From contig JAZKBT010000006.1 of NCBI GenBank assembly GCA_040388475.1, positions 314,262 to 346,261 of the forward strand: a stretch of 32,000 bases of DNA, written 5' to 3'. Below the pieces are notes generated by a model. The model had not been told where the DNA came from. It did not search any database and saw nothing but the letters and a program-made list of their open reading frames with translations. The stretch is from Bacteroidota bacterium (GTDB lineage: Bacteria; Bacteroidota; Bacteroidia; Chitinophagales; Chitinophagaceae). Position numbers and translations under genes: made by a program. Each line of letters starts with the position of its first letter. Within the stretch, counting starts at the first letter, position 1. Shown here one piece after another: positions 5,906 through 21,026 of this stretch.

Positions 5906-7521
5906 AAATACTATCATTCAATCCGGGCCATGACGGCGCATTCGCTTATCTTGAAGATGGCAATTTAATTACCTCCATTGAGGCCGAGAAACACTCTCGT
6001 TATCGCCATTCACCACTGTCAATTCCAGATGTGTTCAGCGTTCTCGGCGAACTCAAAGAAGTTCCTGACGTGCTTTGCAGAGGTGGGTGGTGGCCTGCCG
6101 ATACACATCTGTCTGAACAGAGCTTTCATGCCAGATATCATGGCGTCAGCAACAGTGACATGATTGTTGGCCAACAACGCCTTTTGGGGAAGACGGTTAA
6201 ATACTTCTCATCTTCCCATGAACGTTCCCATCTTCTCTGTGCCTTTGGGATGTCTAATCTGCCCAAGGGTACCCCGTGCTATGCACTGCTTTGGGAAGGA
6301 GTAATTGGATCATTTTACAAAATCGATACTGCGTTGAACGTGATTAAGCTCGCCGATGTCATGCCTGAACCCGGACATCGTTATGCTCTGCTCTACGGTC
6401 TGGCAGATCCAACCTTTGATAAAAGCGGCGCCGAATTCTCTAGATTTTCTGATGCAGGAAAACTTATGGCTTTGGCTTCATTTTCGAAGAGAAGGAAGCC
6501 GTCGGATGACGAGGAGAAAATAATCGCATTTCTAATGCAGGATTGCTTGCACTTAAAGCCGAACGAATGTGAAACCCTAAGCCATTACCGACACTTCAAC
6601 GTGGGGCTTGATGATCAGGAGTTCCGCAACTTTGCAGGTATCGTCAGCGATAAAATATTCGATCGTTTTTATGAATATGCTAAGTCAAATATGAAAGAGG
6701 GCTTGCCGTTGCTGATTTCTGGGGGGTGCGGACTAAATTGTGATTGGAACACCAAGTGGAGAGAGACCAATTTATTTTCAGAGGTTTTTGTGCCACCTGT
6801 CGCAAACGATTCAGGATCGGCAATCGGCACAGCGATCGATGCCCAATTCCATTTTACAGGGAACCCTAAGATAGATTGGAATGTCTACTCTGGTCTTGAA
6901 TTTATTGCTACTGATTCATTCGAATCATCATTATATGATAAGTATGAAACGAACTACACAATGATTGCCGACATGTTGGCAAACAATCTAATCATCGGCT
7001 GGGTAAACGGAAAATACGAAATTGGACCACGTGCTTTGGGAAATCGTTCGATTCTTGCTTCACCATTCGAGGAAAAAACGAGGGTGCGATTGAATGAGAT
7101 CAAACAGCGCGAACAGTATCGTCCGATTGCGCCTGTGTGTCTGGAAGAAGATGCTGAAAGATGGTTTGGCTGCAACCACCCGAGCCCATATATGCTATAC
7201 ACGCAACTCGTTTCTACGGATGCGCTAGCTGCGGTGACGCATGTCAACCGGACGGCGCGCATTCAAACGGTGTCCTCTGCGACCAACAGCCATTTGTATG
7301 AATTGCTTGTTGCGTTCAAAGCACGTACCGGTTACGGCGTCTTGTGTAATACTTCTCTAAATTTTAAAGGAAAGGGATTCATAAACAGCATAGCCGATCT
7401 ATCGGCTTATACAATAGAACATAATTTGGATGGCTTTGTGATTGAAGGACGCAGCTATATGTTGAAATCATCGAAAAATTATCAAGCCTACTTGAATATG
7501 ACTAATTATGTGGCCAGCTAG
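5902..7521 (+). CDS. Carbamoyltransferase (NodU/CmcH family)
   Basis: MKILSFNPGHDGAFAYLEDGNLITSIEAEKHSR, GGCGLNCDWN and GPRALGNRSILASP are hallmark carbamoyltransferase N- and C-domain motifs. The ATG overlaps the upstream stop (5902-5905). Confidence 0.8.
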   Translation: MKILSFNPGHDGAFAYLEDGNLITSIEAEKHSRYRHSPLSIPDVFSVLGELKEVPDVLCRGGWWPADTHLSEQSFHARYHGVSNSDMIVGQQRLLGKTVKYFSSSHERSHLLCAFGMSNLPKGTPCYALLWEGVIGSFYKIDTALNVIKLADVMPEPGHRYALLYGLADPTFDKSGAEFSRFSDAGKLMALASFSKRRKPSDDEEKIIAFLMQDCLHLKPNECETLSHYRHFNVGLDDQEFRNFAGIVSDKIFDRFYEYAKSNMKEGLPLLISGGCGLNCDWNTKWRETNLFSEVFVPPVANDSGSAIGTAIDAQFHFTGNPKIDWNVYSGLEFIATDSFESSLYDKYETNYTMIADMLANNLIIGWVNGKYEIGPRALGNRSILASPFEEKTRVRLNEIKQREQYRPIAPVCLEEDAERWFGCNHPSPYMLYTQLVSTDALAAVTHVNRTARIQTVSSATNSHLYELLVAFKARTGYGVLCNTSLNFKGKGFINSIADLSAYTIEHNLDGFVIEGRSYMLKSSKNYQAYLNMTNYVAS

Positions 7522-7657
7522 AGTTAAGGTAACAAGTTGAAGTCCGACAATGGTTTCCAAAGAATTCAAGCTTTTTGATAGATAAAAAACAAGATGCTTT
7601 ACAATATTCCTGTTTATAGACCCCCCTTTATGCCTAATAAAACAAAAATGTTCGAAC

Positions 7658-9310
7658 ATGAAAATTTCCCGTATTAAAATTATGAACTTCAGATCTATTC
7701 ATGATACTGAATTCAATACTAGTGACTTTAACATCTTTGTTGGCCAGAATAACTGTGGGAAGACCAACTTTTTTGAGGCAATGGAGTTTTTCTTCAATGG
7801 ACTTAAAAAAGGTACAGCAATTGAGGAACTAAAATTTAGAAGAGAACCAGGAAATGAAATTCTTGTTGAGATAGAGTTCTCTGGAGCGATAGCAGGAGCA
7901 GCGAGTATGCAGAATGTAGCAAATCGTACAAAGATCCAAAACATTCTGCAAGAACATGATACAGTTGTTTTACAAAGAACGAGTCAGGTAATTAATAAAC
8001 GCAAAGTGTTCGTTAATGGCGGCGAAGTAGCGCCTGGTGTTGGTTTTGATGCTGCTCTCAATGACTTCCTGCCGAAATTTGAATATATCAGTACCAAGCA
8101 ATATTACGATTCGGTTGCAAAGTATACCAAAACTACACCGATCGGGATTATGTTATCGGGCGTGCTGACTACAATTCTTCAAAACAATGCGCAGTACCAG
8201 GATTTCCAAGATAAGTTCCGAGAACTTTTTGAAGATGAAGATTCAGAAATCAGGGAAGAGTTTGAGGCAATAGGTACAAAAGTTAAAGTATACCTGGAAA
8301 AACAGTTCCCGGATACGACTAAGGTTAAGTTCGAAGTGACTGCCCCTGCATTTGACGACCTACTCAAAAATTTTGAGACCTCAATAGATGATGGGGTTGA
8401 GACATCAGCGGAAGAGAAAGGTGACGGTATGCAACGAGCGCTTATGCTGGCGATCATTCAGGCTTATGCCGATTTTAGAAAAGCTAATGATGATTTGGGA
8501 AAATCTTTTTTATTTTTTATTGATGAGGCAGAGTTGCATCTGCACCCAACAGCACAGCGCAATCTTAAAAATGTACTGCACGCGCTATCGCAGGATACTG
8601 ACCAGGTATTTATTAATACTCATTCATCTGTATTTGTTGCGGACAATTATGACAGTCAATCTATTTTCCGGGTTGAAAAACAAAACGGTGAAACTGAAAT
8701 TGTGCTGACCGGGGATTTGGAGAAGCCCTATATCGTTTTTGAATTGTTAGGTGGAAGTCCCAGCGATCTGCTATTGCCAAGAAATTTTTTGATCGTTGAA
8801 GGGCAGTCGGAATTTGAATTATTGACAAGAGTTATAAAGCGGTTCTATCATGAGCGCAAAGTGATCCAGATACTCAAAGCAAATGGTGATATTGACCAAG
8901 TGGAACGGACGATCAACGCTGTGGAAAAATTATTTATGCCATTGAGTACTAGTATTTACGGTACACGGACTGTAATACTTCTTGATCAACCCAGCCAACA
9001 AACTCAAGGAGGGGTACAACAGTTCCGTGACAATAACCCCCATCTTGCTGCCAATTCACAATTGCATATTCTACCGGCAAGAGACATTGAGCAATATTAC
9101 CCGGACCAAGTTTGCCAGATATATGGCAACTGGCGGAAGACCCAGGAGGAACTTGATGCCGTAAACGGGCAAGGCGCTAAGATTGTTACCGGAAGAAAAA
9201 AGAAGCAGTTGGCAAAACATGTCGGTAATACTATCACACAGGCACAATTTGAAGAAGATCTACAGATCTGCTTTGAAGCTCTTGGTAGGTGTTGGGAGCT
9301 TGCATATTAA
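7658..9310 (+). CDS. OLD-family ATP-dependent nuclease (ABC-type ATPase + Toprim-like C-terminal domain)
   Basis: ATPase motifs: Walker A VGQNNCGKT, signature-like EEKGDGMQRAL, Walker B/D-loop FLFFIDEAELHLHP, H-loop INTHSSVF. C-terminal motifs: FLIVEGQSEFELL (Toprim Glu) and LPARDIEQYYP (IEnY-like motif of OLD/DUF4435 Toprim proteins). Confidence 0.7.
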   Translation: MKISRIKIMNFRSIHDTEFNTSDFNIFVGQNNCGKTNFFEAMEFFFNGLKKGTAIEELKFRREPGNEILVEIEFSGAIAGAASMQNVANRTKIQNILQEHDTVVLQRTSQVINKRKVFVNGGEVAPGVGFDAALNDFLPKFEYISTKQYYDSVAKYTKTTPIGIMLSGVLTTILQNNAQYQDFQDKFRELFEDEDSEIREEFEAIGTKVKVYLEKQFPDTTKVKFEVTAPAFDDLLKNFETSIDDGVETSAEEKGDGMQRALMLAIIQAYADFRKANDDLGKSFLFFIDEAELHLHPTAQRNLKNVLHALSQDTDQVFINTHSSVFVADNYDSQSIFRVEKQNGETEIVLTGDLEKPYIVFELLGGSPSDLLLPRNFLIVEGQSEFELLTRVIKRFYHERKVIQILKANGDIDQVERTINAVEKLFMPLSTSIYGTRTVILLDQPSQQTQGGVQQFRDNNPHLAANSQLHILPARDIEQYYPDQVCQIYGNWRKTQEELDAVNGQGAKIVTGRKKKQLAKHVGNTITQAQFEEDLQICFEALGRCWELAY

Positions 9311-9325
9311 AAACAGTCTGAGAAT

Positions 9326-10198
9326 ATGGAAAAAACAACTGCGCAACGCGTCGCATACCTCGAAAAGGAATTCAATCAGTATTACCGGTACCTAAGGGAC
9401 AGTTCGTCCTATATGTTTGAAATGATGAATTTCATGGATATTACGAACTATGACAAGAAAATATTTTCTGAATACTGGAGTTATGAGTACCTGTATAGGA
9501 TGTACAATATCCTGTGTGCTTATTTTGAAACATTGGGCCTGCCCCACTACCTAGAAAGATTTATTAAGGAGTTCCAACCTATTATTGACGACAAAAAGAA
9601 AGCGACTGATATTTTATCTATTCCACTCACATTTGGTGACAGCGAGGAAGACTTGACGTTGCTAATTGAATGGAAAAAATTTTTAGCACCATTTGATTTT
9701 TTCTGGACGAAACTCGATAAAAAAGAAATTCACAAGGTAAAGCAGCTTATAGAGTGTACAAATCAAATTCTAAAGTTGACGAAAACAAAAGTGTTCAAAG
9801 AGGATGACATCAACAGGATAATGCGAAGTGTGGCCAATTTTTATTTTAGTGATGTGAGCGCTTATTCGGAAGGCTATTTTGAGCACAATTTTAAACATTA
9901 CAAGCCTGACCTTATCATTAAGGAAACCGGTACCGCTATTGAATATAAGCTTATAAGGGATAATTCCGAGATTGGTACAAAGATGGATGAACTAATCATC
10001 GATGCCAAAAGATATGCAGGTAATCCACTTAACCGGGAATGTATTGCGGTTTTTTGCCTTTCGACAGCTGTCAATAAAACAATGAAGGAAATCAGGGAGG
10101 ATTGGGAGAAAATGAAATTTCCTTCCAATTGGGAACTAATCATTATAGATGACGTAATGATCGAGCCAAAGAAAATGAGGGTTACACAAAAAGCATAA
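9326..10198 (+). CDS. Hypothetical protein with putative C-terminal PD-(D/E)xK nuclease motif; operon partner of the OLD-family gene
   Basis: Starts 15 bp after the OLD-family stop. KPDLIIKETGTAIEYKLIRD gives PD-x10-E-x-K spacing typical of restriction-endonuclease-fold proteins. The N-terminal ~190 aa is unassigned. Confidence 0.4.
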   Translation: MEKTTAQRVAYLEKEFNQYYRYLRDSSSYMFEMMNFMDITNYDKKIFSEYWSYEYLYRMYNILCAYFETLGLPHYLERFIKEFQPIIDDKKKATDILSIPLTFGDSEEDLTLLIEWKKFLAPFDFFWTKLDKKEIHKVKQLIECTNQILKLTKTKVFKEDDINRIMRSVANFYFSDVSAYSEGYFEHNFKHYKPDLIIKETGTAIEYKLIRDNSEIGTKMDELIIDAKRYAGNPLNRECIAVFCLSTAVNKTMKEIREDWEKMKFPSNWELIIIDDVMIEPKKMRVTQKA

Positions 10199-10215
10199 GG
10201 ACACCACTACTAGTG

Positions 10216-11649
10216 TCAAAAAGGCAAATCGGGATCTTCGATAGTTGGAACGCTTCCGAACGGCTTAACTTTATCAATACCCGGAGACAAAAATTTATGC
10301 AGCGCTTTTAAGTTTCCCAACAGTTCATCAAAAGTTATGATCTGTACGTTTTTTGAATTGCCCCTGAACATTTCGAATGATTTGTGTTCGTCTGAATTTG
10401 ATAAAGATCTTCCGGCAATCAAAATACCTCTAACAGCGAAAGACTCGATAGTGTTATTCCGACTATCTACTTTTAGATGGTTAAAATTCTTTTGAAACAC
10501 ATAAATTTGGTCGAGTAACTGATTTACTGCCGCGCTAATTTCAGGGGCTGGGGCAAACACGCCAACCCGATATTCTTGCGCGGAAAGAAGTTTGAGGCTC
10601 GGTGTTTTAATTTCTACGAGTGCTGCATTTCCTGAAACACTATTTTGCATTAAGTAATCGGCAATTTTCCCGCCTGTTCCTGAAAATTTAGTACCTCCAA
10701 CCGAAGCCTGTTCCTCAACACTAATCACAGGCACACCGAACGCCATATTAAGAATGAACGGATTTTGATTCAGTAATTTCTGCCAGTGGTTTTCGCCTAA
10801 TTTTTTATTCATCATGTCTTCAAACCGCGCAATCAATTCTTCAAGTGTAACTAGTTCTATATCCTGACGAAGTTTAACAAGGACTTCGGGGTTTTCGCTG
10901 GCTATTTGCCTGCCCTGTTCTTTAATGATTTTAACGGCATTGGTTCGCTCTTCTTTATCGTCATTCGCTTTTCGAATGGATTTGTCTTTGATAAACTTCG
11001 TGATTGCGGCAGTGGATCTACCGTTATCCATTCCTAGCGGTTCGTAATCAAGCAAGTCAAAAAACAAGTCACCTACCAACTCCTTTTTTAATTTTAAGGA
11101 AATTCTTTGTGTGCGGGAAGTTAGGTTGTCAATAGCCTTGGTCATTTTATGCAGATCCTGCCGACTTATCACTGCTTTATTATTTGTAGGGTCCAGTGAC
11201 ATTTTGCCCGTCAGGGTAATATGCAATTGGTCCATTCCGAAATGTTCCAACATCGAAACTATTGACCGATAGCCTTTCTTGAATCCCAAACCATAATTAT
11301 GATCTTCAACAAATGCACCGGGGAGTATCGAATTAAAAAAGGCTTCAACGTTATCAGCTTTAAAGTAAGCTGCTTCTATATCTTTTAGATCCAGCCGTAT
11401 ACTTTCCAATACGTAATATTTTGGTTGCATACACCTCAATCCCCAAACCTGAAAAGGAAAAATGGTCAAACTTTTTTTTTCGACATCTACCTCAAAAATT
11501 CGTCTCTTAAAATCCTTTCTATCATAGCCCTCATGCGGAAGCGCCTCGTTTGGAGGTGTAAAATATCCCCAATAAACGCTTTCACTGATACTTTGAATAT
11601 CAAGATTGCCTTCTGGCATGATGGTATCTGATGGGAAAGGACGAGCCAT
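10216..11649 (-). CDS. sduA: Shedu defence nuclease (DUF4263 / SduA-like)
   Basis: C-terminal half: NPFILNMAFGVPVISVEEQASVGG...KIADYLMQNSVSGNAALVEIKTPSLKLL (D...E-x-K core), ILIAGRS and NVQIITFDELLGNLKAL. This fits the DUF4263 layout. The N-terminal domain is unassigned. An extra tail ends in EDPDLPF. Confidence 0.65.
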   Translation of the reverse strand: MARPFPSDTIMPEGNLDIQSISESVYWGYFTPPNEALPHEGYDRKDFKRRIFEVDVEKKSLTIFPFQVWGLRCMQPKYYVLESIRLDLKDIEAAYFKADNVEAFFNSILPGAFVEDHNYGLGFKKGYRSIVSMLEHFGMDQLHITLTGKMSLDPTNNKAVISRQDLHKMTKAIDNLTSRTQRISLKLKKELVGDLFFDLLDYEPLGMDNGRSTAAITKFIKDKSIRKANDDKEERTNAVKIIKEQGRQIASENPEVLVKLRQDIELVTLEELIARFEDMMNKKLGENHWQKLLNQNPFILNMAFGVPVISVEEQASVGGTKFSGTGGKIADYLMQNSVSGNAALVEIKTPSLKLLSAQEYRVGVFAPAPEISAAVNQLLDQIYVFQKNFNHLKVDSRNNTIESFAVRGILIAGRSLSNSDEHKSFEMFRGNSKNVQIITFDELLGNLKALHKFLSPGIDKVKPFGSVPTIEDPDLPF

Positions 11650-12103
11650 AGTATTAATTGAGTTTCAAAATATTTGCCCCATGTTTTTCAGTATTCTCCG
11701 GCTAAAATTCGCTCAAGGTAATATTGATGTTTTGCAAAAAATCCTATATCACCTGCGTATTTGGTCTACCCGCATATTGAGAAGAAATATTTACACTATC
11801 GTATTCGAAACGGCTTAAAAACACAATATTTAAATCTCTCCACTTGAATTTGTTGAGAAAAGGGCTTATAACTTCAGCAAATTCGGTGCATCTAACTTGC
11901 CTCGGAATTAACTTTATCCGTCTTAAAAGTAAGCTGTTTATAAATAGTAATTTTATGTCTTTTGACCCATCGATGACAATTTGGCAACCCATCCAAACAT
12001 CAAATATGCTGACTACCAACAAATTATAGTTGTGCAATAAAAGGCATAATTTTAGACAAGGTCCAATAACCATTGCACAAGCTGTTAACCAAAAACTGCC
12101 TAG

Positions 12104-13024
12104 ATGGAAAATGAGACCTTCATAGACATCAAACCTCTCTTGGATCGGATCGAGCCATTGATCCGAACCATGCAGCATGCGAAAATGGAAGTGGGTCTCT
12201 CACCCAGCAACGAGCATATTGTTACAGCTATCAAGTATCAGGGCATAAACCAGATGCGCCAGGAGTTCATCCAGCGCCTGACAAGTTCCATCGTTAAATA
12301 CGTCATCGAAAAATCAAAGTACCAGAGCCGAAAAGACGAACTGGAAGCAGACGGCTTTGACGAAAGTGATGCCGGTGCGGAAATCTTTCAGCAGGCAACG
12401 CATTATTTCAGGAAATCCGAAATCAAAGGACAATTTTCCGAACTGTTATTGTTCAATCTTCTGCAATATTATTTTGACGCGGTACCGGTGGTAAGAAAAA
12501 TGAAAATTACCACCAACCCAGAAATGGAGAGAAATGGTGCCGATGCCATTCACTTAGGCAAACTTTCAGACAATCAATATTGTGTTTACTTAGGAGAAGC
12601 CAAAACGTACGCATCAGGGTTTACCGGGGCTTTTACAAAAGCTATAAGCAGTATCATCAAAGCATATAATGACCACAGACAGGAACTTCATCTACACAGC
12701 TATTCAGATTTTCTGGAGACACCTGTAAGAGACTTGATGAAGAAATACCTCAGTGGTGCCATAGATCTGCCGGTGAAGCTGGTTGTGATCATCAGCTACT
12801 GCACCGGTGAAACCCCGCAGCAGGATTCAAAGGAAAACTACGAGCAATATTATATCGGTGAAGTTCTAAAGGCATGTAAAAAAATAACGGAGGATCATTA
12901 TAAAGACGAAGAAAAAAATAAAATTCATCCCGCACTCCTAAAAGAGATCCATTACATTTTGTTCCCGGTTAACGAGCTTGAAAAATTGCTCGCAGATTTC
13001 CAACTTAAACTGGGACTTAAATGA
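12104..13024 (+). CDS. hamA: Hachiman HamA (DUF1837, PD-(D/E)xK nuclease)
   Basis: 306 aa. SELLLFNLLQYYF, then GADAIHLGK...VYLGEAKTY (D...E-A-K). The stop overlaps the start of a large SF2 helicase gene (ATGA at 13021-13024), the canonical Hachiman gene pair. Confidence 0.7.
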   Translation: MENETFIDIKPLLDRIEPLIRTMQHAKMEVGLSPSNEHIVTAIKYQGINQMRQEFIQRLTSSIVKYVIEKSKYQSRKDELEADGFDESDAGAEIFQQATHYFRKSEIKGQFSELLLFNLLQYYFDAVPVVRKMKITTNPEMERNGADAIHLGKLSDNQYCVYLGEAKTYASGFTGAFTKAISSIIKAYNDHRQELHLHSYSDFLETPVRDLMKKYLSGAIDLPVKLVVIISYCTGETPQQDSKENYEQYYIGEVLKACKKITEDHYKDEEKNKIHPALLKEIHYILFPVNELEKLLADFQLKLGLK

Positions 13025-15549
13025 CTTTCTCGCCGCTAGAATATGAATTGTTCCACCATAACCTTCACCAGGTAGCCCTTAAATTCGGGCTGGTGGATGA
13101 GGGACCGCCGGCATTAGAGGAGGACACTGTCTGCCGGCTTCTGAACCGCGCAGAAGAATATTCTTTTGAGCCCACTAACGAAGAGCGATATAAGAGCCTC
13201 CTCATCTGTGCTTTGTTATGGGAAAATAAGCATGAGGCCTGGAGTGCGCTTGCGCCTTTTATTTCAAAAATATTGATTCGTTTAGGCCTGACAACGTCAG
13301 CTAAAATGGTCAATTGGAACAAGGACTTGGCGCTGTTTAATTCCTTCGGTAGTTTACTGGAAGAACTTTGCGCCACGGTGCAACTGATGGATAGCGAAGT
13401 TTCTATTGCAGATCAAAAATTGACTCTGTCTGATTTTCAAAAAAGGATGTGGGACAGTATTGATCAATATAGTCGCGTAGGGATTTCAGCGCCGACATCT
13501 GCAGGAAAGTCTTTTGTGCTGGTTAATAAGGCCATCCAAACATTAATAAACCAGGATGGAAAGATTTTCTTTATCGTGCCTACGATCAGCCTTATCACCC
13601 AGGTATCAAATGATATCCGCAAAAAACTAAAAGAGTTATCGATCTATAATATCGAAGTCGCCCAGACGGTAAACGATATTTCACTCTTTAAGTCAGCAAA
13701 AGCAATTTATGTACTCACGCAGGAAAGGGCTTTTTCTGCGATCAATCATCCGGACGCAGATTTTTCAGATGTAAGAATGCTGATCGTTGATGAGATACAG
13801 AATATTGAAAAAGTAGCTAACGAAAACGAAGAACGGGCCAAGATCCTCTTCGATGTAATTCAGATATTCAAAAACGACCTGAACCCTGATAAGATAGTTT
13901 TAAGTGGACCGCGACTCGACAAACTGCAGGGTATTATGAAAAAATGGTTTGGTGATGAGGCGCGAAGTGTATCTGAAGAACTGCCGGCAGTATTGAACCT
14001 CACGTATTCTTTCAAAAAAGGTCGGGGAACACTTTCTTTCGTGCAATATATTTCAGAAGATGTATATCAATCTATCCTGGTAGATGATCGCTTTAAGGTA
14101 AAAGCCAAAATGCTTGACCGCCAGAAGTTTGGTACAGAAGAAAATCAACTCTTAGCCGGCATCATCAACAGCACTAAAAAAGAAGGCAATATTATTTTTG
14201 CCGACAAATCAAAATCAGCTAATGAAATTGCCAGAGGCATTGCTTTACTTTTAAACGATAACGACCTGTCACCAGATACCGAAAGCTTCTCTGCATTTAT
14301 CGAATCAACCGTACATCCGAAATACGAGTTAATTCAAACTGTAAAAAAAGGAATTGCTTATCACCATGCAAAGATGCCTCCACATATCCGCTGTTTGGTT
14401 GAAAAGCTTTTTATCGGCAAGCATTTAAACACTGTAGTGGCTACCACAACGTTAATGCAAGGCGTAAACCTGCCGGCAAAAAATATCATTATTAAAACAC
14501 CTAAAGTAGGTCTTGGGGAGCTGACCGGTTATGAATTTTCCAATCTGAAAGGAAGGGCCGGCAGATTGATGCAGGATTTTGTCGGACGGGCGCTGATCAT
14601 CAATGAAGGGGCCTGCGAAGAAGTGGGTATTAAGCTTGGTGTATCACAGCAAAAGGAATTGATAATCGGGTATGCCGGTAAATTTGAGATGGATAAAAAT
14701 GTTATCCTTGATTGTCTTACCAACAATAAAGTGATGTCTAATGAGGTTTCCAATGACATCGTTACTTATATCCGCAATATGGTTGTGCGATACGGCCTAA
14801 GCGCAGACATAAGACTGGGTGAAGTAGGAATCGTGCTCGATAAGGCTGTTATTGATTCCATTACCGCTGGCCTCAATAACCTGGAAGTGCCGGCTATTAT
14901 CTGCCGCAATAATTTTTACTGGGATCCGCTGGTACTCGATCAGCTTTACAAACAGGTAAAAAACGATGAATGGCCCGACTTACCCAATACCATTATAGGT
15001 TCATCGGGTGCGATTCATGAATGCATTTTAAAAATGGCTGCGTTCGCGCCGATGTATTACGCGCGCTATATTCCCAAATTAGAAATCACGGAATTTAGTG
15101 TGAGGAAAGTACAGTCTTTATCTATTTATGCTGAAAGCTACGGGAGAGGAAGGCCGTTAAAAGATGTGATCAATCCAATCGGGTTTCCCATAGAATCACC
15201 AGAACAGATCGAAGAAAGGATCAATGATATTCAAACAAAGGTTGTTTATGGTATTCCTAAATTATTAAAACCATTGTTCCAGATATATGATCTGCTAAAA
15301 GAGCAAAAAACAGCGGCTATTCTGTCCTGTATTGAAGTGGGGGGACTTGAACAGCGATTACGCGCTCTTATTGAAATCGGTATCCCGCGTGAAACAGCCA
15401 TAGCATTGTTACAAAATGATCCTGACGATAAACTCATTGATGCCGATGACCGTATCAGTGAAACAGCATTAAAAGCATTTTTACGACGAGCCAAAGCATC
15501 AGTTCATTTGAATAAGTGGCATAAACTGATTATCCATGATATTCTTTAA
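13021..15549 (+). CDS. hamB: Hachiman HamB (SF2 helicase)
   Basis: 842 aa. Motif I GISAPTSAGKSFVL, motif II LIVDEIQNI, motif V-like VATTTLMQGVNLPA, motif VI NLKGRAGRL. Translationally coupled to the DUF1837-like gene. Confidence 0.75.
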   Translation: MTFSPLEYELFHHNLHQVALKFGLVDEGPPALEEDTVCRLLNRAEEYSFEPTNEERYKSLLICALLWENKHEAWSALAPFISKILIRLGLTTSAKMVNWNKDLALFNSFGSLLEELCATVQLMDSEVSIADQKLTLSDFQKRMWDSIDQYSRVGISAPTSAGKSFVLVNKAIQTLINQDGKIFFIVPTISLITQVSNDIRKKLKELSIYNIEVAQTVNDISLFKSAKAIYVLTQERAFSAINHPDADFSDVRMLIVDEIQNIEKVANENEERAKILFDVIQIFKNDLNPDKIVLSGPRLDKLQGIMKKWFGDEARSVSEELPAVLNLTYSFKKGRGTLSFVQYISEDVYQSILVDDRFKVKAKMLDRQKFGTEENQLLAGIINSTKKEGNIIFADKSKSANEIARGIALLLNDNDLSPDTESFSAFIESTVHPKYELIQTVKKGIAYHHAKMPPHIRCLVEKLFIGKHLNTVVATTTLMQGVNLPAKNIIIKTPKVGLGELTGYEFSNLKGRAGRLMQDFVGRALIINEGACEEVGIKLGVSQQKELIIGYAGKFEMDKNVILDCLTNNKVMSNEVSNDIVTYIRNMVVRYGLSADIRLGEVGIVLDKAVIDSITAGLNNLEVPAIICRNNFYWDPLVLDQLYKQVKNDEWPDLPNTIIGSSGAIHECILKMAAFAPMYYARYIPKLEITEFSVRKVQSLSIYAESYGRGRPLKDVINPIGFPIESPEQIEERINDIQTKVVYGIPKLLKPLFQIYDLLKEQKTAAILSCIEVGGLEQRLRALIEIGIPRETAIALLQNDPDDKLIDADDRISETALKAFLRRAKASVHLNKWHKLIIHDIL

Positions 15550-15776
15550 TGCAATCTTTCCATGAAATCGATGGGCTGATTTCAATCATTAATACATTAC
15601 TAACTATTTTTATTCCCAATATGTCAAAGAACTGTTTGCTCACACATAGCAGCCGCTGCAAGAAAGCTTTCAATTGTTTGGTAAAAATATAATGAAGACG
15701 GAAAATAAATTGAGCCTCCCCGTTTTTCGGGTAGGCAAATGACTAAGTAAAACGTCCTTTTATCTAATAAGAGCAA

Positions 15777-17369
15777 TTGTTTACTGATTTAGTAACTTTT
15801 GCTCAAAATATGATTAATACACAGCCAAATTCACTCTCCGCCATTTTATATGTCCGAGTAAGCACAGAAGAACAAGCTATCAGAGGCGGTTCTTTAAAAA
15901 CTCAAGAAGATACACTTCGCCAATACTGCAGTCTTCGAAATATTAAAATCAAACGAGTGTATGTCGAAGATCATTCAGCAAAAACATTCAACCGTCCTGA
16001 GTGGAAAAAATTAATTACAGAAATAAAAAGCACTAAGCCGCCGTCAGAGTTGGTGCTTTTTACACGATGGGATAGATTTAGCAGGAACACTGGTGACGCT
16101 TACTCCACTATTAAAGTTCTCCGAAACCTAGGAGTCGATCCTCAAGCCGTCGAACAACCCTTGGATTTATCAGTACCAGAAAATAAAATGATGCTGGCTT
16201 TTTATCTGGCAATTCCGGAAGTTGAGAATGACCGCCGCAGCTTAAATACAAAAATGGGTATGCAACGGGCGAGAGAAACCGGCCGTGTTCTAGGCCGTGC
16301 GCCAATAGGATATGTGAATTATTGTTATCCTAACGGTTTTAAAGGTATTGTTCTTAAATACCCGGAGGCCGCTATCATTGAAAATGCATTTACACGGTTG
16401 GCAAATTCGAAATGTAAAATCACAGATGCATATTCAGAGATATTAAAAGAAGGGCTCATCTGCAGTAGATCCAACTTCTGGAAATTATTACAGAATCCCA
16501 TTTATGCAGGTAACGTAAGAATTACCGATGATGCTAGTGCCAGCTCCTATATAATTCCGGGGCAACACAAAGGAATTGTCTCGGTGGAAACTTTTGATAA
16601 AATTCAACTACTATATTTCGGTAAAAAGAAAAGCAGATTAGAATTTCTTCTGGTCAATAACAGATTCCCTATGCGTGACTTTATGTCTTGTCCTATTTGT
16701 GGTAAACGCTTGACCGCAAGTGTTTCTTCGGGAAGAACGTATAAATATCCCTATTATCATTGTATATGGCCTTGCCGCTACAGGGTTAGAGCAGAAAAAA
16801 TATATGATAGATTTCTTCAAAAATTAACCGGCCTAATTCCTAAAAAAGAATATGTTGATCTGTATATAAGCATTGTTAATGAAAGTTATTCAAGAGAGAA
16901 CAAACGCTTGGCAACAAAGAAAATGAAAGCATTGACCAGTATTGAATTATTCACTGATAGAATTGCTAAAGCCAAGAATTTATTGCTGGATACTCATATC
17001 GATTTTGAAGGATACAATGATATCAAATCTGATCTGGAGAGTAAGATTCAGGTTTTAGGATATACTGTACAAGCCTATTCACAAAAGCAAATTGATCTTA
17101 CCGACAAGATTAAGGGAAGTGCGCGTTTTATTTCAAACCCTAAAAAACTTTTTCAAGCACTTGATGAAATGAACAGGCCTTCGTTACTAAATAGGATTTT
17201 AGTCCGGAGTCAAAATTGGGAGCAAGGAAATTCGAACCATATTTTCCAGCAATCGTTTCGCGCCATCTACGGTTTAGATGAACAGGAGATTGAAGCCAAA
17301 ATGAGCGAAGTTGATGTAAGATCTACTTTAGAAACAATGGCAAATCTTGAGTTATTACTCGTTCAGTAG
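15777..17369 (+). CDS. Large serine recombinase (resolvase/invertase N-domain + recombinase domain + zinc ribbon + coiled coil)
   Basis: AILYVRVSTEEQAIRGGSLKTQ (catalytic Ser), VLFTRWDRFSRN, zinc ribbon CPICGKRLT...YYHCIWPC, long helical C-terminus. The listed start is TTG at 15777. The ATG at 15810 (MINTQPNS) is a plausible true start. Confidence 0.85.
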   Translation: MFTDLVTFAQNMINTQPNSLSAILYVRVSTEEQAIRGGSLKTQEDTLRQYCSLRNIKIKRVYVEDHSAKTFNRPEWKKLITEIKSTKPPSELVLFTRWDRFSRNTGDAYSTIKVLRNLGVDPQAVEQPLDLSVPENKMMLAFYLAIPEVENDRRSLNTKMGMQRARETGRVLGRAPIGYVNYCYPNGFKGIVLKYPEAAIIENAFTRLANSKCKITDAYSEILKEGLICSRSNFWKLLQNPIYAGNVRITDDASASSYIIPGQHKGIVSVETFDKIQLLYFGKKKSRLEFLLVNNRFPMRDFMSCPICGKRLTASVSSGRTYKYPYYHCIWPCRYRVRAEKIYDRFLQKLTGLIPKKEYVDLYISIVNESYSRENKRLATKKMKALTSIELFTDRIAKAKNLLLDTHIDFEGYNDIKSDLESKIQVLGYTVQAYSQKQIDLTDKIKGSARFISNPKKLFQALDEMNRPSLLNRILVRSQNWEQGNSNHIFQQSFRAIYGLDEQEIEAKMSEVDVRSTLETMANLELLLVQ

Positions 17370-17556
17370 AGAAATGGTTCGATTTTCGAAAGGTCAACTT
17401 ATTGAACTTTTTGGGAAGAACGTGTATCGAATAGTGTAGGAGGGCTAAAGATCAAGCGGTTATAAACCCGGTAGGCGGTTCTAAATGAAATCGGCTTAGG
17501 AAGGAATCGATTTTTATTTTCTTGTAAAATCATCAGAATTTCATTTCAATGATTTT

Positions 17557-17627
17557 CCTGAAACCCAATACCACAAAGGGTTTCAGGGGTATAAAATGAA
17601 AAAGGAAAGTCGTATTAACTTTCCTTT
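17557..17627. repeat. Two adjacent perfect 10-bp-stem hairpins between convergent genes (possible terminators without U-tracts)
   Basis: cctgaaaccc (17557-17566) pairs with gggtttcagg (17578-17587). aaaggaaagt (17601-17610) pairs with actttccttt (17618-17627). They lie between the recombinase stop and the mobC stop. Neither strand has a T-run after them. Confidence 0.5.
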
Positions 17628-17807
17628 AACTAAGTAGGGATCCGGTAGACATTTCCGAGCATTTTATACCTGATTTAAAGCTATTAGCAACGATGCACAT
17701 TGATTAAAGTATTGATTGTTAGTATTTTAGATCACAATTTCGAAAAAAGCATCGATTCGAAAAATGCCAATTTGTACCGTATGGGAATCGAACCACTTTC
17801 AGCCGTT

Positions 17808-19793
17808 TTATGCATTGCCTGTATCTTGTTTTTTACGTTCTTTTTCTTTGATCAGACGCGCTACTTCGGTTTCAATTAAGCTACGTATTTCATATTTGAT
17901 CTGGAAAAAATTATCCATTACTTCCTGTCGAGAAACTTTTTTTATTACCGGTATGGAAGTAAAACCGTGCATTTCCTTGTTTACTGTTTCGGTGTTTTGG
18001 ATTATCTGAGAATGAAACATCTTAAGTGCGATTTTTTCATGTGGATCATCAGCAACCATTCCAACGAATTCGCCTGATGAAAGAGATGATATTTTACTGG
18101 GTGGAATTGCAGATTCTAATTGCTGTGATAAGCTGACGGAAGTATCCGTCCGATTAATCGACAGGCTTTCCCGATCCTGATTTATTCGACCAAACCGATC
18201 CGACAAGGTTTTTGCAGTGTCTCCCATTACCTGGCCACTGATAATGTTGCCGCAAATATTAATGATCACATCGGCCTGCTCCTTGCCATAATCTTTCCTA
18301 AGCTGGCTAAAATCCTGCATACCCAAAACGGTTGCTACTTTATTACTTCTCGCAGTTGCAATCAGTGAATCCATGTTATTAAAAAACAGTGTGGGGAATT
18401 CATCGAATACCAGAGCGCATTTCTGTTGCCCTTTTTTATTTACCAGTTTAACCAACCTCGAAACATACAGTGATATAACAGCGCCATAAATTCCTTGCTT
18501 TTCCGGGTTATTGCCAACACATACAATTTTGGGATCCTCCGGGTTATTGATGTCAAGCGTAAAGTCGTTCCCCGATAGAACCCAATAGAGCTGGGGTGAA
18601 GCAAGTCGCGCCATGCCAATCTTTGCACTCGCAACCTGTCCTTCTAATTGTTCCATCGCATCATTACGGAAAGCAGTAATAAAGGGGTTAATATAAACCT
18701 CTATTTCAGGAACTGTATTCAGCACCGGCAGCAGGTCATCGTATTCTGCCTGCATCAGTTCAATTGCATGTGGTAGCGTACAGTATTTCCCGTTTTCATA
18801 TCGGCGAAGAAACCAGATAATTGCAGTAACGAAATTGATTGGTGACTCGACAAAAAAATCACCTTGTTTTCTTATCCATTCCCTGTTCAATCCTAACAAT
18901 ATGGTGCGCGCGCTTTCAGTCGCATCTGTGATATCATGCATGCCCATTGGATCGAGCGGGTTACACCTGTGGGAGCTATCAAGGTCGTCAAAGTTGATGG
19001 TATAAAAAGTGGGTGCTTTTGAGAACCTTTTTTTGTTAGCCTGCAGCCAGTTATAAGCAGAACGGGAAAGGTCGTCATACTTAAAATCATAGACGAACAT
19101 TGCATATCCTTTCTCAATCATCTGGCGCATAAGCGGCAGGATAACAAACCAGGATTTTCCGGCACCTGGCGTGCCGCATACAATAGATCCCCGAAATGGG
19201 TTGGGTATGTTTATCCAACTGAATCGACTATTGTTTTTAAGCTGATACTTTGCACGAAAATTTACCGAGTATTCATTCTGAATCAGCCGCTCTTCCTGCG
19301 GAAAAGTTTCATTCATTACATTAAAAATGTCGGTGGCTAATTTCTGGCGAATGATCCTGCTCACCATAGTACCTCCAGCCATTACTAGCAGGAAGCCAAT
19401 TGTTACAAAAAATAGATACGCCTGCGTGATCGATTGCGGCGTTGAAAAGAGCCTGAATGCAAGAGCACTAACAAAGAATAACAGCAACCCTGCGGCAATA
19501 CAAATGCAGATAGAAATCCAGTTTTGGCTGACTTCCTTTTTACCCTGCACACCTGCCAGCCCTATAACCAATAGTAAAAGGCAAAACCACTTAGCACGGG
19601 TGAAATTGGCAAATAATCCAGTTGCAGCGATCCGCGCAAGTATCTTATCAGAGACTGACGAAGTAAAATGCCATTCCTGGAATGCAGCATAACATGAATA
19701 ATAGATATGCAATCCAAGCATTCCTACACTAGAAAATCTTGTCAGGTCCAGGATCTTTCGTAAATCCGTTTCATTCTCACCAGTAGATGACAT
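17808..19793 (-). CDS. mobC: Type IV coupling protein (Bacteroidota MobC / TraG-TraD family)
   Basis: 661 aa. N-terminal transmembrane helices, Walker A GTPGAGKSWFV, Walker B-like CALVFDEFPTLF. Sits directly downstream of the relaxase gene. Confidence 0.85.
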   Translation of the reverse strand: MSSTGENETDLRKILDLTRFSSVGMLGLHIYYSCYAAFQEWHFTSSVSDKILARIAATGLFANFTRAKWFCLLLLVIGLAGVQGKKEVSQNWISICICIAAGLLLFFVSALAFRLFSTPQSITQAYLFFVTIGFLLVMAGGTMVSRIIRQKLATDIFNVMNETFPQEERLIQNEYSVNFRAKYQLKNNSRFSWINIPNPFRGSIVCGTPGAGKSWFVILPLMRQMIEKGYAMFVYDFKYDDLSRSAYNWLQANKKRFSKAPTFYTINFDDLDSSHRCNPLDPMGMHDITDATESARTILLGLNREWIRKQGDFFVESPINFVTAIIWFLRRYENGKYCTLPHAIELMQAEYDDLLPVLNTVPEIEVYINPFITAFRNDAMEQLEGQVASAKIGMARLASPQLYWVLSGNDFTLDINNPEDPKIVCVGNNPEKQGIYGAVISLYVSRLVKLVNKKGQQKCALVFDEFPTLFFNNMDSLIATARSNKVATVLGMQDFSQLRKDYGKEQADVIINICGNIISGQVMGDTAKTLSDRFGRINQDRESLSINRTDTSVSLSQQLESAIPPSKISSLSSGEFVGMVADDPHEKIALKMFHSQIIQNTETVNKEMHGFTSIPVIKKVSRQEVMDNFFQIKYEIRSLIETEVARLIKEKERKKQDTGNA

Positions 19794-19820: not shown

Positions 19821-21026
19821 TCATCGTTTCCTCTTTCTTTTCTTCTTCTTCAATGCGAACGGCGTTGGATTAAATTCGTTCTCAGGCTGCATCAAGGACT
19901 CGACAGCCGACAACCCATTAAATTCTATCAACCCGGTTTTTGCTACATGGTGTATTTTATGACTAACTGGTTCGATCTGATTATTCATTTGTTTCAGAAG
20001 TCCGGCGATACTATACTGCCTGCCTAAATAAGAACCATTACATACCATTTTATTTTCGTTGTCAACAAACGTAATCCCGTACATTCTACCTTCTGCGTTC
20101 TGGCGTATAACCGTAGCGACATTCTTTGCCAAAAGCATCGCAGATAATTCATGAATTGAACCCGGATTATTTTGCATTACACTTGCAAGTTTTTGCTGAA
20201 CTTTTTCTTTCAATGCTTCCCGAAGCGTATGATTTTTTTCAAACCGCTTTTCGAGAGTTGTAAGCGTTGGATTTCCGGCCATCGAACTTGCTTTGATTGG
20301 GACACCAATTTTATTTCCGTTCCGATCAAGTACGTGGTATAACAATCCTTTTTTTAAATGGATAAATCCATCCTTTGCACCTGGATCGGCAATGACGTTA
20401 AACTGCTTTAGCACTGCGTTCAATTCCGGTAGTGAACAATAATTGTAGGTAGGCAATACCTGCTGCAAAACATTGGCAATCCCACGCTTTGTTTCAGATT
20501 TTCCATACAACAGTTTTGTGTTGTCAAATGGAACAACTAAGGCTTTATTGACTCCCGATTCTTCTGCTTTTATCAAGCCGTATTTTTGTTCAAGAAATTT
20601 CCTTGCGAGCTCGGATTGATTTCGTCCCATATTGTGTGTATTGATCCGCTCTCCGTTCGCACGAATTGTTGTCGATACAATATGGACATGCGGATGCCCT
20701 GCGTCGTAGTGGTGATAGACGAGAAAAGGCTGATCCCCGAATCCAATCAAAGCCATGTATTCACGTGCGATTTGCAATAAGGTTTCCGGTGCGCAGGAGT
20801 CCCTGGTGCTGAAATTGAGCGATACGTGAATGGTGTTTGTTTTTACGCCTTCTTTCAGCCTGTTCCTGTGTTCAAAATGGTCCAGTTTGTCATAAAAATT
20901 CATTTTTTTTAACGGCAATAAAAAGCCGTTTTCCCCAATGCATGTTGCGTTCCCTTTTTTTACTTTCTGTTCATTGTAATTCAATGTTTTTTGAAGGCTG
21001 TGCGGTGTTGTTATTCGTGCAACCAT
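19821..21026 (-). CDS. mobB: Relaxase / mobilization nuclease (Bacteroidota MobB type)
   Basis: MVARITTPHSLQKTLNYNEQKV N-terminus, and the histidine triad VYHHYDAGHPHVHIVSTTI typical of the relaxase/mobilisation nuclease domain. Overlaps mobA by 16 nt. Confidence 0.85.
   Translation of the reverse strand: MVARITTPHSLQKTLNYNEQKVKKGNATCIGENGFLLPLKKMNFYDKLDHFEHRNRLKEGVKTNTIHVSLNFSTRDSCAPETLLQIAREYMALIGFGDQPFLVYHHYDAGHPHVHIVSTTIRANGERINTHNMGRNQSELARKFLEQKYGLIKAEESGVNKALVVPFDNTKLLYGKSETKRGIANVLQQVLPTYNYCSLPELNAVLKQFNVIADPGAKDGFIHLKKGLLYHVLDRNGNKIGVPIKASSMAGNPTLTTLEKRFEKNHTLREALKEKVQQKLASVMQNNPGSIHELSAMLLAKNVATVIRQNAEGRMYGITFVDNENKMVCNGSYLGRQYSIAGLLKQMNNQIEPVSHKIHHVAKTGLIEFNGLSAVESLMQPENEFNPTPFALKKKKRKRKR

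Follow-up and report, generated by a model that had tools for sequence, protein, structure and literature searches.

A predicted Class-1-type OLD nuclease gene closely followed by a predicted orphan restriction-fold nuclease gene in a Bacteroidota defence island

This report deals with two adjacent genes of a Bacteroidota bacterium of the family Chitinophagaceae, located within a stretch of 32,000 nucleotides (contig JAZKBT010000006.1, positions 314,262 to 346,261) to which we refer as the window and in whose numbering all positions are given. Gene 1 encodes a protein of 550 amino acids and gene 2, which starts 15 bp further downstream on the same strand, one of 290 amino acids. The original prediction, made from the sequence before any database was searched, had proposed that an OLD-family ATPase/nuclease and a PD-(D/E)xK protein form an undescribed two-gene defence system here. 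Both open reading frames (ORFs) lie where that prediction had placed them, and the motifs it quoted (GQNNCGKT, IVEGQSE and the longer motif of gene 2 listed below) were reproduced on translation. Since each of them has many homologs, the two genes are real and not chance ORFs. Their features are as follows, with the basis of each assignment in brackets.

7658..9310, + strand: gene 1, predicted OLD-family nuclease of 550 aa (ORF list; PADLOC, Pfam, AlphaFold2)
7742-7765, + strand: Walker A motif GQNNCGKT, residues G29-T36 with K35 (translation; family alignment)
8780..9307, + strand: Toprim domain, approximately residues 375-550 (alignment invariants; Foldseek matches to OLD structures)
8792-8812, + strand: motif IVEGQSE with E381 (translation)
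9311..9325, + strand: intergenic spacer of 15 bp (sequence; terminator and promoter scan)
9326..10198, + strand: gene 2, helical N-domain and predicted PD-(D/E)xK fold, 290 aa (ORF; Pfam PF18742; AlphaFold2)
9902..9949, + strand: putative catalytic motif KPDLIIKETGTAIEYK, D195 ... E206-x-K208 (translation; alignments)

Products of the two genes

The best PADLOC model for the gene 1 product is 'Old' (PDLC02358; E 1.1e-60), followed by AriA (2.5e-35) and the GajA models (about 1e-22). Pfam yielded AAA_15 (3e-33), AAA_21 (2e-17) and SMC_N, and the NCBIfam matches to the retron Eco8 effector, MAD3 and PtuA were all far under their cutoffs (72 bits versus 250 for retron_eff_Eco8 and 36 bits versus 500 for PtuA). 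Among proteins of known structure the Class 1 OLD of Thermus scotoductus (6P74) is the top match by sequence. The same structure came first (E 1.7e-18) when an AlphaFold2 model of gene 1, with a predicted local distance difference test score (pLDDT) of 77, was aligned over its full length with Foldseek; GajA and the OLD protein of retron Eco8 followed, and E values ranged from 1e-17 to 1e-18. The N-terminal ABC-type ATPase typical of OLD family nucleases is present. Apart from Walker A it comprises a Walker B motif (FIDEAELHLHP, with D289-E290), an H-loop (T321-H322-S323) and the signature-like sequence GDGMQR, and these motifs are invariant in an alignment of 18 family members. Model score, invariant motifs and the fold match to 6P74 thus bear out the assignment of the 550-aa protein to the OLD family with a full ABC-ATPase motif set.

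The Toprim domain that OLD nucleases carry fused to the C-terminal side of the ATPase can likewise be recognized, based on the fold matches and on the invariance of E381 (within IVEGQSE), G410-D411, D443 and E478 (within RDIEQYY) in the 18-sequence alignment, and the earlier description of IVEGQSE and RDIEQYY as Toprim-type motifs therefore holds. This assignment comes with two caveats: the Pfam profile OLD-like_TOPRIM remains under threshold (15 bits versus 23.2), and at D443 gene 1 reads DQP instead of the expected DxD, the aspartate being followed in the family by Q, H, E, K, C or A and then, in nearly all members, by P. G410-D411 is located only 30 residues past the catalytic glutamate. 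Metal binding in this clade may involve a different set of residues from that in T. scotoductus OLD or GajA. According to the context-based definition, Class 1 OLD proteins are encoded by a single gene and comprise 500-600 aa (PMC10568477; PMC12392090), and gene 1 fits this definition in context and length (550 aa). A further mark of Class 1 is a Toprim domain that lacks the helical insert of Class 2. Judged by sequence and structural model, gene 1 is predicted to encode a Class-1-type OLD nuclease, Class 1 being its closest affiliation.

Residues 150-259 of the gene 2 product match the Pfam family PF18742 (REase_DpnII-MboI) with 31.1 bits, the cutoff being 27. PADLOC, which the original prediction had suggested to run on the region, returned 'Old' for gene 1 and no more than a weak Aga_Helical-REase match for gene 2 (5e-6), and NCBIfam gave nothing for gene 2. 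As had been anticipated, the protein is neither a UvrD helicase nor an HNH or DUF4435 protein, none of which was matched in PADLOC or Pfam. P194, E206 and K208 never vary in the close family, and D195 does so only rarely (conserved to at least 90%). In an alignment of 40 sequences with distant relatives (21-39% identical) K208 is again invariant, with D195 and E206 conserved to at least 90%. The AlphaFold2 model (pLDDT 84.7) consists of helices at residues 5-151 and a subsequent alpha-beta-beta-beta-alpha-beta core in which D195 is placed at strand 196-198 and E206 and K208 on strand 203-210. The profile match, together with a conserved triad on this core, assigns gene 2 to the PD-(D/E)xK enzymes of the PF18742 type and agrees with the earlier picture of a restriction-endonuclease-fold C-terminus behind a helical N-terminal region.

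The structure prediction that had been recommended for this protein thus gave a good model, but Foldseek detected no significant match to this model in the PDB (best E 0.067) or in BFVD (best E 0.007). The weak matches were mostly PD-(D/E)xK nucleases, namely Can2, the small subunit of R.BspD6I, McrC, Mus81 and viral 'restriction endonuclease' proteins. A profile search of the PDB sequences yielded nothing, and for the N-terminal helical half (approximately residues 1-150) no relative was found in Pfam, NCBIfam, PDB or BFVD. On the strength of profile and model we regard gene 2 as a putative orphan DpnII/MboI-fold PD-(D/E)xK endonuclease gene.

Occurrence of the two families together and apart

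The original prediction was to stand or fall with the conservation of gene 2 beside OLD homologs, and no such conservation was found in either direction. A total of 89 OLD loci were collected, 79 of them distinct, and 61 extend at least 900 bp past the OLD stop codon. At none of these 61 was a gene 2 relative present beside the OLD homolog (partner-family hidden Markov model (HMM) and tblastn, both at E<1). Conversely, no OLD homolog was detected within 5-6 kb of 13 close gene 2 loci by tblastn, by an OLD-family HMM or in the gene tables of loci L110-L112, nor at four distant plasmid loci, which amounts to 0 of 17. Eight of the 13 close loci originate from a pattern scan of one genome per species in about 185,000 species, and the other five were obtained independently via exact-sequence look-ups. 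The proposal of an undescribed two-gene system is thus not sustained. The prediction had also conceded that the pair might match a named system, and this applies in part: gene 1 by itself belongs to a named single-gene kind (Class 1 OLD, or 'Old').

In the closest relatives the OLD gene is either solitary or followed by a gene other than gene 2. The nearest known relatives of the two window proteins differ in identity (80% for OLD, 63% for gene 2), as does the GC content of the two genes (0.405 and 0.364, respectively), and both differences fit separate origins, albeit weakly. No terminator-like hairpin is predicted in the 15-bp spacer. A clear internal promoter between the two genes was not seen either, the sigma-70 promoter scan having performed no better than on shuffled sequences with a model that does not cover Bacteroidota promoters. 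Given the short same-strand gap and the lack of both a terminator and a clear internal promoter, genes 1 and 2 are probably co-transcribed.

The gene 1 protein has more than 1600 homologs. Almost all of the best 120 are exactly 550 aa long and 72-80% identical to it, and those with a named source belong mostly to Bacteroidota and in one case to Ignavibacteria. Of 401 genomes sampled from the phylum, four (about 1%) carry the family, and it was found in no other genome of the window's own taxonomic family, of which there were 21. Conservation of this degree is unusual for a defence gene, yet presence is limited to about 1% of the sampled genomes. The overall pattern suggests a tightly constrained single gene that was often moved by horizontal transfer. 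In the tree, the OLD protein of the window clusters with those of loci where, in most cases, nothing is tightly linked downstream. In complete genomes of Polaribacter and Nonlabens the OLD gene is an isolated one flanked by housekeeping genes; in Flavobacteriaceae 3519-10 it is found near AbiTii.

At roughly 46 of 62 loci, no same-strand ORF follows the OLD gene within 50 bp. The kinds of genes found within that distance at the remaining loci (about 16) are unrelated to each other, and include N6_N4 DNA methylases, a 275-aa helical protein, an AAA_21 ATPase, a SIR2_2 protein and a Schlafen/AlbA_2 protein. The 275-aa protein is encoded at two independent loci (L021:5684-6511 and L109:3253-4086), 31-32 bp after OLD genes whose products are 77-79% identical to that of the window. 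Its two copies share 53% identity and are all-helical, match nothing in Pfam or PADLOC, and are unrelated to gene 2 as judged by hhalign; a genuine partnership with this OLD sub-lineage is conceivable. The OLD genes linked to a methylase make up one main clade (62-69% identical to the window's OLD), represented by seven metagenomic loci (L059 (606-7073), L101, L065, L071, L073, L075 and L086), in which a N6_N4 methylase of about 640 aa directly follows. At L059 and L101 a ResIII-type gene encoding 963 aa ends 3 bp upstream of OLD, which thus lies between the res and mod genes of a type III-like restriction-modification (R-M) operon. The other five have a related gene of about 150-270 aa in front of OLD, and the L065 copy is a DUF4391 protein according to Pfam. 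Taken at the level of the family, the neighbours vary and no conserved partner gene exists, as is characteristic of Class 1. Gene 2 follows at 15 bp in the window but is not conserved with OLD, and among the loci examined a DpnII/MboI-fold nuclease occupies the position after OLD only here.

The gene 2 family is represented by 40 close homologs (42-63% identical) in a set of 5.8 billion proteins, those with a named source being from Bacteroidota, and by 181 matches at E<1e-3 among 1.84 billion representatives. A further search with a profile built from distant relatives recovered essentially the same close family, and a search of viral contigs revealed no relatives. At four of the 13 close loci (L007, L009, L012, L110) the gene 2 relative immediately follows the gene for a large Eco57I/MmeI-type N6-adenine methylase protein. 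The other nine lack an adjacent methylase and are solitary among defence-type genes coding for KwaA, Mrr fusions, AbiC, McrB, a STAND NTPase, SMEK_N and PLD. Distant relatives reside on plasmids of Edwardsiella, Methylocystis, Agrobacterium and Klebsiella, and some copies, for example that of L112 and that of the Edwardsiella plasmid, evidently form a transcription unit of their own. In a metagenome-assembled genome of Tannerellaceae (L013:5992-6858) the relative is split into ORFs of 118 and 161 aa, probably because this copy is a pseudogene with a frameshift or was misassembled. The family is rare, restricted to defence-type neighbourhoods and not included in PADLOC v2. Its members have the character of mobile orphan nuclease genes, which are sometimes found with methylases and otherwise alone.

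ABC-type ATPases are encoded next to two of these relatives. At L007 a Ppl-like ATPase gene is located downstream of the gene 2 relative. On plasmid pMpar-2 of Methylocystis parvus (L105:2468-5672) a relative of 277 aa (PF18742, 33.5 bits) is encoded 77 bp past the gene for a 764-aa AAA_13 ATPase that matches PDC-S06 (7e-68), a separate defence candidate in PADLOC, with an Eco57I-type methylase and a PaeR7I endonuclease encoded further upstream. A general theme of an ABC ATPase combined with a gene 2-type nuclease was considered and dismissed as defence-island background, given that only 2 of 17 other loci show it and that the ATPases belong to different families and are located on opposite sides of the nuclease gene.

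Surroundings of the gene pair

The region downstream of gene 2 contains further defence genes and genes of a mobile element:

10216..11649, - strand: Shedu SduA gene, a separate neighbouring system (PADLOC SduA 1.3e-134; Pfam SduA_C)
12104..13024, + strand: Hachiman HamA gene, a separate neighbouring system (PADLOC HamA 6.5e-74; Pfam HamA)
13021..15549, + strand: Hachiman HamB helicase gene (Pfam DEAD, ResIII)
15777..17369, + strand: large serine recombinase gene (Pfam Resolvase, Recombinase)
17808-19793, - strand: type IV secretion system coupling protein gene (Pfam YWFCY, T4SS-DNA_transf, TraG-D_C)
19821-21026, - strand: relaxase gene (Pfam Relaxase)

The PADLOC scores of SduA and HamA leave the earlier naming of Shedu and Hachiman as neighbours, and with it the defence-island setting, intact. 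With the serine recombinase, coupling protein and relaxase genes beyond Hachiman, the defence genes abut mobile-element machinery. Upstream of gene 1, Pfam identifies glycan-modifying genes, namely a GT25/GH16 fusion (glycosyltransferase family 25 and glycoside hydrolase family 16) and a carbamoyltransferase. No DNA methyltransferase was found among the ORFs scanned with Pfam between window positions 195 and 21026, no Rfam family reached its gathering score within 6500-18500, and a search for cassette-boundary or island repeats flanking genes 1 and 2 revealed short chance matches only.

The SduA gene is convergent on gene 2, with 17 bp between the two stop codons (10199-10215). A hairpin with a 7-bp stem at 10200-10217 spans this gap and may be a shared bidirectional terminator. 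Towards the left end of the window, a 549-aa ORF (195-1844) has no Pfam match at E<1e-4, and GYF_2 is the sole domain of the ORF at 2051-2734.

Interpretation and comparison with known systems

Both genes probably encode anti-phage nucleases. Taking into account the data presented above, we propose with a probability of about 0.66 that genes 1 and 2 are two autonomous single-gene defence modules which stand side by side in a defence island next to genes of a conjugative element. That each family occurs without the other at all other loci examined argues against a mutual dependence of the two genes. For Class 1 OLD proteins autonomous function has precedents, as both P2 Old (PMC10568477) and the OLD protein of Vibrio cholerae, Vc OLD (PMC12392090), defend alone. 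By analogy with these two and with the T. scotoductus OLD, gene 1 would form a dimer regulated by its ABC ATPase. Its Toprim acidic residues E381, D411/D443 and E478 would, together with metal ions, nick or degrade nucleic acid once the nuclease has been activated by phage infection. Gene 2 would cut DNA by means of the D195/E206/K208 triad, and its family-specific helical N-domain would probably serve in target recognition or regulation.

Three observations weigh against two independent modules: a 15-bp same-strand gap without a terminator is the usual arrangement of true partners, about a quarter of the OLD homologs have a tightly linked downstream gene, which leaves room for a slot for exchangeable partners, and ABC-type ATPases of different families adjoin gene 2 relatives at 2 of the 17 other loci. 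The first two could be accommodated by a locally assembled working pair in which the OLD protein senses or processes phage DNA and activates gene 2 or cooperates with it, the position after OLD being a slot for interchangeable effectors or partners. Such a pair would be in line with the recurrence of two kinds of downstream gene, the N6_N4 methylases in one clade and the 275-aa helical protein in two independent relatives, and with the partners known for OLD classes in Gabija, PARIS and retron Eco8 (PMC10568477). We nevertheless consider it unlikely, because co-occurrence was nil in both directions, the majority of the OLD family is solitary, the genes behind OLD belong to various unrelated families, in part as components of complete systems of their own such as the R-M operon at L059, and nothing positive was found in its support. 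Quite doubtful in our opinion is the more specific idea that the clade of 550-aa OLD proteins represents a modular system and that the pair in the window is one of its working variants, as yet undescribed, with OLD licensing a second nuclease. It is more likely that the gene 2 family is a new single-gene defence nuclease not yet included in PADLOC.

Gene 2 might alternatively be the leftover or detached endonuclease of an R-M system whose methylase is elsewhere or was lost, or else a modification-dependent (Type IV-like) enzyme, with its place after OLD being incidental. Its DpnII/MboI restriction-enzyme fold and the methylase genes in front of four of 13 close relatives are compatible with such an origin, and the split copy at L013 indicates that the family can decay. 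Yet most close relatives manage without an adjacent methylase, none is encoded among the scanned ORFs of the window, and a classical cutter of unmodified DNA would be lethal without its cognate methylase. Moreover, the gene is of full length here, with catalytic residues intact and well conserved, as expected of a working protein. We deem this explanation improbable and favour two autonomous modules.

A genuine system of OLD and PD-(D/E)xK proteins would have extended the OLD classification by a fifth genetic context. On the evidence, however, the adjacency of the two genes is probably incidental, and the locus may serve as a caution that a 15-bp gap within a defence island is not sufficient to call a system. 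The Bacteroidota OLD clade, being very well conserved across distant taxa at about 73-80% identity, patchily distributed and equipped with a non-canonical Toprim motif, offers a good test case for the question whether Class 1 OLD proteins defend alone. The family of gene 2, with its helical and DpnII/MboI-fold parts, could reasonably be put forward as a new enzyme of single-gene defence or of restriction.

Several known systems contain OLD-related ABC ATPases. Gabija resembles the locus in that an OLD-type protein (the Class 2 OLD GajA, which matches gene 1) is closely trailed by a second gene, the UvrD-like GajB. Gene 1, however, scores only 1e-22 with GajA versus 1e-60 with 'Old', and Gabija was discarded because no UvrD/PcrA/Rep-like helicase gene adjoins gene 1 on either side. 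AriA of PARIS (AriA/AriB), PtuA of Septu (PtuA/PtuB) and the Eco8 effector are partial matches to gene 1. PARIS (Class 4) and AbiL do not apply as gene 2 matches neither DUF4435 nor Toprim, and the same is true for Septu as gene 2 has no match to HNH (PtuB). A retron of the Eco8 type (Class 3 OLD) was rejected since the neighbours of gene 1 are the carbamoyltransferase gene and gene 2, with no reverse transcriptase and no Rfam match within 6500-18500.

Gene 2 shares with DpnII/MboI-type endonucleases a core above the gathering score of PF18742, and some of its relatives are encoded beside DNA methylases as well. It differs in that the match is limited to residues 150-259, leaving the helical N-terminal half unmatched, and in that it lacks an adjacent methylase, most of its relatives being orphans in defence islands. 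Classification as a Type II R-M system was rejected, there being no methyltransferase among the scanned ORFs of the window and only 4 of 13 relatives beside one.

The closest counterpart of gene 1 is Class 1 OLD (P2 Old, 6P74 and Vc OLD), with which it shares its length, the 'Old' model, 6P74 as best match and a family that usually has no fixed partner. By contrast, identity to 6P74 is only about 14% in the structural alignment, the Toprim domain is divergent, with a Pfam score under threshold and DQP for DxD, and gene 1 is tightly linked to a gene downstream and located within a defence island, whereas Class 1 OLD genes have been described as not being near other defence genes (PMC10568477). 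In summary, neither gene departs from a known kind: gene 1 is predicted from sequence to encode a Class-1-type OLD nuclease and gene 2 an orphan nuclease of restriction fold, whose uncharacterised family provides a modest lead as a candidate for single-gene defence.

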